Shown here: in pieces, positions 57,901 through 60,900 of the stretch
Numbering within the stretch: position 1 is the first letter of the stretch
Layout of the letters: each line of letters begins with the position of its first letter
NCBI RefSeq assembly: GCF_056712565.1
Contig: NZ_CM160072.1
Length of the DNA stretch: 64,000 bases
Reading direction: 5' to 3' (one strand)
Program-made: the position numbers

Positions 57901-60900
57901 CTTCAGCCACGGTTGCAGCGTGCTCACGTTTTAACCCAGCCTGGCAGAGTTTATTCTCGATTAGCTGGTGGAGTGTTTCCCGACTGATTTTCATCTGTCT
58001 TCCTTTTTAACGACGATGTGAAGCATGACTGCAATTAACATACAGGGAAAATATCTGGATTATGTGATCCAGACAGGCAAAAAAATATAGTTAGAATTTA
58101 TTTGATAATCCGCTCGCTTTTAACCTGGTTTTTAAAACAACCACGCTTATTAAAAAATAACGCGTAATAGCCCGGCGGTTATTTGAATTCTTTTGTTAAT
58201 AATCCCTGTGTGATATTCATCACCTTATTTACTCGTTGTCATCGATACCGTAATCGCCACATTAACACTGCTCGTGCAATTGCCATGGGTGCAATTTTTA
58301 AGGAGTTGTTATGATCCACGCCTTTATTAAAAAAGGGTGTTTTCAGGATTCGGTCAGTTTAATGATTATTTCACGAAAACTCAGCGAATCAGAAAATGTT
58401 GATGATGTTTCCGTAATGATGGGTACGCCCGCCAATAAAGCGTTATTAGATACTACAGGTTTCTGGCATGACGATTTTAATCACGCCACGCCGAACGATA
58501 TTTGCGTGGCAATTCGTAGCGAAGCGGCGGATGCGGGGATCGCGCAGGCGGTTATGCAGCAGCTTGAAGAGGCGCTAAAACAACTGGCGCAGGGTTCAGG
58601 CAGCAGCCAGGCGTTGACGCAGGTGCGTCGCTGGGACAGTGCCAGTCAGAAATTACCCGATGCCAATCTGGCGCTGATTTCAGTGGCTGGTGAGTATGCG
58701 GCGGAGCTGGCGAACCAGGCGCTGGATCGCAACCTCAACGTGATGATGTTCTCCGATAACGTCACGCTGGAAGATGAAATCCAACTTAAAACCCGCGCGC
58801 GGGAAAAAGGCTTGCTGGTGATGGGGCCAGACTGCGGTACGTCGATGATTGCCGCCACGCCGCTGGCTTTTGCTAACGTGATGCCGGAAGGCAACATTGG
58901 CGTCATAGGCGCTTCCGGTACCGGGATTCAGGAGCTGTGCTCACAGATTGCGCTGGCAGGGGAGGGAATTACTCACGCGATTGGTCTTGGCGGGCGCGAT
59001 CTCAGCCGTGAAGTGGGCGGCATCAGTGCGCTAACGGCGCTGGAAATGCTCAGTGCAGACGAGAAAAGCGAAGTGCTGGCATTTGTTTCAAAACCACCTG
59101 CCGAAACTGTGCGTCTGAAAATTGTTAATGCCATGAAAGCAACTGGCAAACCGACGGTGGCGCTGTTTTTAGGTTATACCCCGGCGGTGGCCCGCGACGA
59201 GAATGTCTGGTTTGCCTCCTCGCTGGATGAGGCCGCTCGTCTGGCTTGTCTGCTTTCACGCGTCACTGCGCGACGTAACGCGATAGCGCCTGTCAGCAGC
59301 GGATTTATTTGCGGTTTGTATACCGGCGGTACGCTGGCTGCTGAAGCGGCGGGATTACTTGCCGGACACCTTGGCGTGGAAGCCGACGATACCCATCAAC
59401 ATGGCATGATGCTGGACGCCGACGGACATCAGATCCTCGACCTGGGCGATGATTTTTACACCGTCGGGCGTCCCCATCCGATGATCGACCCGACCTTACG
59501 CAACCTGTTAATTGCCGATCTCGGCGCTAAACCGCAAGTGCGCGTGTTGCTGCTTGATGTCGTGATTGGCTTCGGTGCGACCGCCGATCCTGCCGCCTCG
59601 CTGGTGAGCGCCTGGCAAAAAGCCTGTGCCGCGCGTTCAGACAATCAACCACTGTATGCCATTGCCACGGTGACAGGCACTGAACGTGACCCGCAATGCG
59701 CTCGCAGCAAATCGCCACGCTGGAAGATGCGGGGATCGCGGTAGTGAGTTCGCTACCGGAAGCCACCTTGCTGGCTGCGGCGTTAATTCATCCGCTCCCG
59801 TCAGCCACACAGCAACACACACCGTCATTACTGGAAAACGTCGCCGTGATTAACATCGGATTACGCAGCTTTGCGCTGGAGCTACAAAGCGCCAGCAAAC
59901 CGGTTGTGCATTACCAATGGTCGCCAGTCGCCGGCGGCAATAAAAAACTGGCTCGTTTATTAGAACGTTTGCAATAAGGGGTTCCCATGTTTACATCAGT
60001 GGCGCAAGCCAATGCTGCGGTTATCGAACAAATTCGTCGCGCTCGTCCACACTGGCTGGATGTGCAACCGGCTTCTTCACTTATCAGCGAACTAAACAAG
60101 GGCAAAACACTGCTTCACGCCGGGCCGCCAATGCGCTGGCAGGAGATGACCGGGCCAATGAAAGGGGCGTGCGTGGGCGCATGTCTGTTCGAAGGCTGGG
60201 CGAAAGATGAAGCGCAGGCACAGGCAATGCTGGAGCAGGGGGAAGTGAACTTCATTCCTTGTCACCATGTGAATGCTGTCGGGCCAATGGGTGGCATTAC
60301 TTCTGCCAGTATGCCGATGCTGGTGGTCGAGAACGTGACCGACGGCAACCGGGCGTACTGCAACCTCAACGAAGGTATCGGAAAAGTGATGCGTTTTGGC
60401 GCTTACGGCGAAGATGTCCTGACTCGCCATCGCTGGATGCGCGATGTGTTAATGCCAGTATTAAGCGCGGCGCTGGGGCGCATGGAGCGCGGTATCGATC
60501 TCACGGCAATGATGGCGCAGGGCATTACCATGGGCGATGAGTTCCATCAACGCAATATTGCTTCCTCTGCACTGTTAATGCGTGCGCTGGCTCCACAAAT
60601 TGCTCGCCTCGATCATGATAAACAGCACATTGCGGAAGTGATGGATTTCCTCAGCGTGACCGATCAGTTCTTCCTCAACCTCGCGATGGCCTACTGCAAG
60701 GCGGCGATGGATGCAGGCGCGATGATCCGCGCAGGCAGCATCGTTACGGCTATGACCCGCAACGGCAATATGTTCGGGATTCGGGTCAGCGGGCTGGGTG
60801 AACGCTGGTTTACGGCGCCTGTAAACACTCCGCAAGGTCTGTTTTTCACCGGCTTCTCGCAGGAGCAGGCGAACCCGGATATGGGCGATAGCGCGATTAC

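Follow-up and report, generated by a model that had tools for sequence, protein, structure and literature searches.

The allF locus and its split reading frame

The DNA analysed here, a stretch of 64 kb from an ST95-type B2 strain (hereafter the window), carries a part of the allantoin cluster in which allD lies divergent from allF-allG-allH-allK (Table 1). Gene order and coordinates match those of UTI89, S88, and K-12, and the first gene of the operon is, by identity and by location, that of Escherichia coli AllF (FdrA, b0518). RefSeq labels its product "acyl-CoA synthetase FdrA." This label is outdated, the gene being allF, for a subunit of oxamic transcarbamylase (PMC11326118). Indeed, fdrA, ylbE, and ylbF have been renamed allF, allG, and allH, which together encode this enzyme (Kim & Kim 2024, PMC11326118). 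Oxamic transcarbamylase converts oxalurate into oxamate and carbamoyl phosphate, requires all three subunits, and carries out the last step of anaerobic allantoin breakdown (PMC11326118). The three genes share an operon with allK (ybcF), encoding the catabolic carbamate kinase (PMC11326118), and allFGHK forms one operon (PMC12535856) that is activated by AllS and ArcA via the control region shared by allD and allF (PMC12535856). The EMSA fragments bound in K-12 span -203 to -144 for AllS and -142 to -83 for ArcA (PMC12535856); carried over through K-12 coordinates, the predicted sites would fall at about 58108-58167 (AllS) and 58169-58228 (ArcA) of the window. The FdrA mentioned in the genome paper of BEN2908, an ST95 APEC strain, was considered and set aside, as it is not the allF locus; it is a paralogue of 40% identity encoded elsewhere in the genome.

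Table 1. Features of the allD-allFGHK locus, in window coordinates
Feature	Position	Strand	Remarks
allD (ureidoglycolate dehydrogenase)	56945..57994	-	Intact (349 aa) and divergent from allF; its product supplies oxalurate as substrate to the AllF-containing enzyme
allD-allF divergent control region	57995..58310	.	316 nt, length equal in K-12
allF/fdrA 5' ORF	58311..59744	+	477 codons
1-nt deletion site	59699..59700	+	Placed by alignment
allF/fdrA 3' remnant	59696..59977	+	93 codons
allG (ylbE)	59987..61246	+	Intact, 419 aa, Pfam AllG; own AAGGGG ribosome-binding site
allH (ylbF)	61257..62072	+	Intact, 271 aa, Pfam AllH
allK (ybcF), catabolic carbamate kinase	62069..62962	+	Intact, 297 aa; last gene of the allFGHK operon

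The earlier note had described an fdrA gene split into two overlapping ORFs of 477 and 93 aa, 1667 nt in total, had attributed the split to a single-base frameshift, and had placed the indel in or just before 59696-59744. Our ORF listing of 57500-61000 reproduces the two ORFs exactly: they lie in different frames, overlap over 59696..59744 (49 nt), and have a combined span of 1667 nt. We compared both with NF004760, the NCBIfam FdrA model, which has 555 positions and a curated whole-protein cutoff of 433 bits. The 5' ORF matches positions 1-466 with 887 bits, well over the cutoff for membership in the FdrA/AllF family (NF004760, PRK06091), and the 3' ORF matches positions 464-555 with 135 bits. 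Since the two matches fall on these successive parts of the profile, the ORFs are the halves of one fdrA gene.

Global alignment with the fdrA gene of UTI89 (1668 nt) revealed a single difference across the gene, the absence of one C that changes TGCCGC to TGCGC. The missing base is one C of the CC pair in TGC-CGC, codons 463 and 464. Which of the two Cs went missing is ambiguous, and the placement between 59699 and 59700 (+) is a choice; the mutant site reads TGCGC at 59697-59701. The alignment and the comparison with K-12 thus confirm a 1-nt deletion as the cause of the split, at the start of the stretch to which the earlier note had confined the indel and within the string that it had quoted. 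The note had also considered that K-12 might share the two-frame structure. It does not: fdrA of K-12 MG1655 has 1668 nt and 555 codons without an internal stop, its sequence around the deletion site being ...CAATGCCGCTCGCAG.... The UTI89 and S88 orthologues are likewise intact, each with 1668 nt in a single frame.

The last native residue of AllF in the 5' ORF, by codon count, is Cys463 (TGC at 59697-59699). The product of this ORF comprises 463 native residues and a 14-residue aberrant tail, ARSKSPRWKMRGSR, ending at a premature TAG (59742-59744), and lacks the 92 native C-terminal residues (464-555). The 3' ORF, in the -1 frame relative to the 5' ORF, consists of a fortuitous ATG followed by native residues 464-555 and ends at the native TAA (59975-59977). 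A member of the FdrA/AllF family is expected to have one uninterrupted frame of about 555 codons with a CoA_binding domain (residues 193-287 of the intact orthologue by Pfam) and a complete Ligase_CoA domain (residues 336-491); in the window, codon 463 is the last in frame, and the 92 residues of the C terminus are detached. Relative to the intact functional orthologues of K-12, UTI89, and S88, the frame is disrupted as it would be in a frameshift pseudogene. With the base restored, the window's allF is nucleotide-identical (100%) to that of UTI89 and S88 and also identical to that of APEC O1, and 12 of the 555 residues of the restored protein are different in K-12 FdrA. The frameshift by one missing C is a deterministic fact of the sequence, for which chance is not at issue. 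It is an ordinary single-base frameshift in a well-characterized gene, not novel in kind and with no sign of an unusual mechanism.

A deletion allele private to the window

The deletion allele is private to the window sequence. The gene itself is nearly ubiquitous, fdrA being found in 5,410 of 5,426 complete E. coli genomes (a set that does not include the window's own strain), with best matches of 1668 nt versus 1667 nt in the window. A 61-mer centred on the deletion site matched 4,822 genomes, all with a 1-nt gap, so that none of the 4,822 carries the deletion allele. In the same 5,426 genomes, a 35-mer spanning the junction, for which a megablast seed is possible only across the deletion junction (junction k-mer GCAATGCGCTCGCAG), found no match. 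Exact look-up of the 477-aa and 93-aa products retrieved neither from about 15 billion proteins or from an index of 153 billion gene positions; this negative carries little information, as genes annotated as pseudogenes are left untranslated by NCBI. The deletion allele was present in none of the metagenome contigs either; the control scan recovered the intact allele in 39 contigs, which makes this negative meaningful, if not decisive. Thus, none of the genome, protein, gene, and metagenome searches found the same allF lesion in a related genome, where an inherited lesion would be expected to occur.

Among 29 full-length copies that we checked (UTI89, K-12, S88, and metagenome contigs), allF is intact in 26. 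The three disrupted copies all lie on human-gut metagenome contigs and carry different lesions: +1 and -1 indels in L015, four 1-nt deletions in L019, and a 14-nt deletion in L025. Two of these contigs have about 2-3x coverage and the third is short. The three disruptions are probably assembly errors, showing how easily spurious frameshifts arise in fdrA.

Around the locus, the window is closely related to known ST95 genomes. APEC E18055 and strain 10035004-3 show no difference from the window over positions 1-45000, and the whole 64 kb is collinear with S88, from which it differs by nine substitutions and exactly one indel, the allF deletion. All homopolymer runs of at least 5 nt (272), including the 80 of at least 6 nt, are equal in length to those of S88. 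The allF deletion itself lies in a plain CC, in no homopolymer and outside GATC and CCWGG motifs. Between 39001 and 64000, the deletion and a G-to-A substitution at 57281 are the only differences from S88, and the best 25-kb matches (46156 bits) show one mismatch and the gap. The substitution is a synonymous change in allD, GTC to GTT at Val238 on the minus strand (plus strand A in the window versus G in relatives). It is also private, being present in none of the 5,244 genomes matched by the surrounding 61-mer, and it lies 2.4 kb from the allF deletion, a spacing that would be this close by chance in about 7.5% of cases.

Other features of the window were recorded along the way. Positions 1-25000 have a median of 24 matching places per E. 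coli genome, from which we conclude that this part must hold short dispersed repeats, probably REP-type elements. Positions 20001-45000 are covered to at least 80% in only 4,413 of 5,425 genomes, and hence are partly variable among E. coli. A type II toxin-antitoxin pair, annotated in S88 as a RelE/ParE-family toxin and a HigA-family antitoxin (ybaQ), lies at about 24552-25231, and a small cluster of hypothetical proteins with a short YadA-family autotransporter adhesin (about 31526-32542, -) at about 30818-33271. Between ybaT and cueR, at about 30313-30410, S88 is annotated with a short pseudogene fragment (a frameshifted, incomplete hypothetical protein missing its N terminus); since the window is identical to its ST95 relatives there, this fragment is common to them and not private.

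Predicted consequences of losing the C terminus

The truncation after residue 463 falls inside the Ligase_CoA domain and removes its last 28 or so residues together with a 64-residue C-terminal extension. The lost 92 residues belong to the NF004760 family profile, as the 135-bit match of the 3' ORF indicates, and are part of the crystallized chain in PDB 3DMY, which covers residues 82-555. Variation among 23 distinct intact alleles, drawn from metagenome contigs and three genomes, further bears on this segment. Codons 464-555 include 18 with synonymous versus 6 with nonsynonymous variation, and the amino-acid changes cluster at residues 494-502. Because this ratio is close to that in the rest of allF (102 versus 40 codons), the C-terminal segment is judged to be under purifying selection. 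A single-sequence AlphaFold2 model of intact AllF (mean pLDDT, 39.4; pTM, 0.29) was too poor for structural conclusions.

We therefore predict from the sequence that the truncated AllF is inactive and that oxamic transcarbamylase activity is lost, since a ΔallF strain makes no oxamate. Indeed, this strain still consumes allantoin and accumulates 0 mM oxamate versus 17.7 mM in the wild type (PMC11326118), with oxalate rising to 12.0 mM versus 2.4 mM in the wild type (PMC11326118). The window allele would be an allF null produced by the deletion of one C from the CC at codons 463/464, its product presumably unable to form the active AllF-AllG-AllH enzyme. The oxamate branch of anaerobic allantoin catabolism, in which oxalurate yields oxamate and carbamoyl phosphate and the latter yields ATP and NH3 via AllK, would then be blocked, and ureidoglycolate would be diverted towards glyoxylate and oxalate, as in the ΔallF strain.

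The frameshift may also affect the downstream genes. Between the premature stop and allG there are now 242 nt, and the loss of translation over this stretch may lower allG-allH-allK expression by polarity. The 242-nt gap is only mildly C rich (C, 0.29; G, 0.24), with a maximum C/G ratio of 2.1 over 80 nt. When 57900-63300 was scanned for promoters and terminators, predicted sites were no more numerous than in shuffled sequence, and none resembling a terminator fell between the premature stop and allG. On base composition, Rho-dependent polarity on allGHK is possible.

Recent mutation, sequence error, or retained function

We lean slightly towards a real, recent, private loss-of-function mutation as the explanation of the allF deletion. 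The lesion would be a genuine and very recent mutation confined to this ST95-like isolate, generated by ordinary replication slippage or deletion. Nothing else in the gene points to decay, so that it would stand at the very onset of pseudogene formation. An origin by template switching at a quasi-palindrome (mutant CGCA-A-TGCG-CT-CGCA) was considered and dropped, the arms being only 4 nt long.

The main competitor is an error of sequencing, assembly, or consensus, or a later editing of the record, in which case allF of the organism itself runs through all 555 codons and the loss of one C of the CC exists in the deposited record alone. We give this explanation a substantial chance, if somewhat below even. 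The same facts that speak for it speak against a real mutation: the deletion is a singleton allele without independent observation, unique among all public data searched, and it affects a conserved gene on which purifying selection acts and which the other genomes examined carry intact. Moreover, a single restored base renders allF identical to that of UTI89, S88, and APEC O1. Many singleton frameshifts and "pseudogenes" in bacterial assemblies are artifacts (PMC11017572), and within allF itself spurious-looking indels occur in the 3 of 29 full-length copies on low-coverage or short metagenome contigs.

The allFGHK operon offers a precedent as well. In the MG1655 reference, ylbE (allG) was described as frameshifted and as "restored" in strain NCM3722 (PMC3045373). 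In a re-sequenced K-12 MG1655 (L002, NZ_CP032667.1, 4323-5582), ylbE/allG is intact, with 1260 nt. As for allF in the window, a single-base frameshift split a gene of this operon in one reference sequence while relatives were intact, although the gene and the strain were different. The early MG1655 frameshift was later treated as a stock variant or a reference correction.

The quality of the surrounding sequence argues in the other direction. Errors of long-read or 454 sequencing usually occur in homopolymers and at GATC and CCWGG methylation motifs. The deletion lies outside all of these, and an error-prone assembly is hard to reconcile with 64 kb that contain no other indel and in which 272 of 272 homopolymer runs of at least 5 nt agree with S88. 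Because the window is collinear with S88, has no other indel, matches other ST95-type genomes exactly over its first 45 kb, and agrees with S88 in all its homopolymer runs of at least 5 nt, the deletion looks more like a real mutation than an error. The private change in allD can be read either way. As the only other private difference, 2.4 kb off, it could mark a locally weak consensus; however, it is a synonymous transition and looks biological, suggesting genuine lineage-specific divergence, which favors a real mutation in allF.

We consider it very improbable that the lesion is real and, beyond this, that its two fragments (AllF 1-463 plus the tail, and Met plus 464-555, translated from the ATG that the deletion puts in frame) are both produced and reassemble into a partly active oxamic transcarbamylase, or that positive selection favored the knockout in an ExPEC/APEC ST95 isolate because it reroutes allantoin nitrogen. 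If either were true, nature would have run an experiment on AllFGH, an enzyme defined only recently.

Retention of function through recoding, either by a -1 ribosomal shift within the 49-nt overlap that would yield a near-native AllF or by reassembly of separately translated ORFs into an active enzyme, is very unlikely. The arrangement does invite the idea: the frames overlap, a -1 shift would restore the native C terminus, and right at the lesion an ATG (59696) happens to be in the new frame, whereby the 3' ORF reads as Met followed by residues 464-555. However, no slippery heptamer of the form X XXY YYZ was found in the overlap (59696-59744) by a scan in the frame of the 5' ORF. The two-frame arrangement occurs in no other genome examined, all of these being single-frame, which argues against a conserved recoding site. 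The programmed -1 frameshifting of dnaX (gamma/tau) similarly involves two overlapping frames with the downstream one at -1, but it relies on a slippery A AAA AAG site and stimulatory elements conserved in all E. coli, whereas the allF overlap has no such heptamer and is unique to the window. The window's own dnaX (7212-9143, +) contains this genuine recoding site, annotated in S88 as a DnaX programmed -1 frameshifting element, at about 8476-8540.

Separate translation of the 3' ORF fares no better. The 25 nt upstream of the ATG at 59696 (TGACAGGCACTGAACGTGACCCGCA) include no Shine-Dalgarno-like sequence, with no GGAG, GAGG, or AGGA at the proper distance, in contrast to AAGGAG for allF and AAGGGG for allG. 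In addition, the break falls inside Ligase_CoA (336-491) and not at a domain boundary. It is because slippery site, Shine-Dalgarno sequence, and conservation of the split are all lacking that we judge recoding or a functional split gene so improbable.

Finally, an adaptive knockout in an extraintestinal-pathogenic lineage, where blocking the oxamate branch would redirect allantoin carbon and nitrogen into the glyoxylate/glycerate branch, is extremely unlikely: a ΔallF strain does keep consuming allantoin while diverting flux (PMC11326118), and fdrA variants do change fermentation products in experimental evolution (PMC8550087), but the lesion recurs in no other genome (4,822 by the 61-mer; 5,426 by the junction 35-mer), 26 of the 29 full-length copies are intact with the 3 broken ones on low-coverage or short metagenome contigs, and the published evolved variant, D296Y, raised oxamate and gave no fitness advantage (PMC8550087). 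For the same reason, this variant, which arose in a syntrophic coculture (PMC8550087), was rejected as a precedent for selected inactivation: with oxamate up, it is not a loss of function.

The lesion carries little weight other than for getting the annotation right. Should the deletion prove to be an error, allF is to be annotated as intact, and either way "acyl-CoA synthetase FdrA" is to be understood as the AllF subunit of oxamic transcarbamylase. A real deletion should disable the oxamate branch in the isolate, which would form no oxamate, would draw neither ATP nor NH3 from carbamoyl phosphate through AllK, and would produce more oxalate. An allF null of natural origin would then exist in a pathogenic ST95 strain, with the pseudogene captured just as it begins to form.
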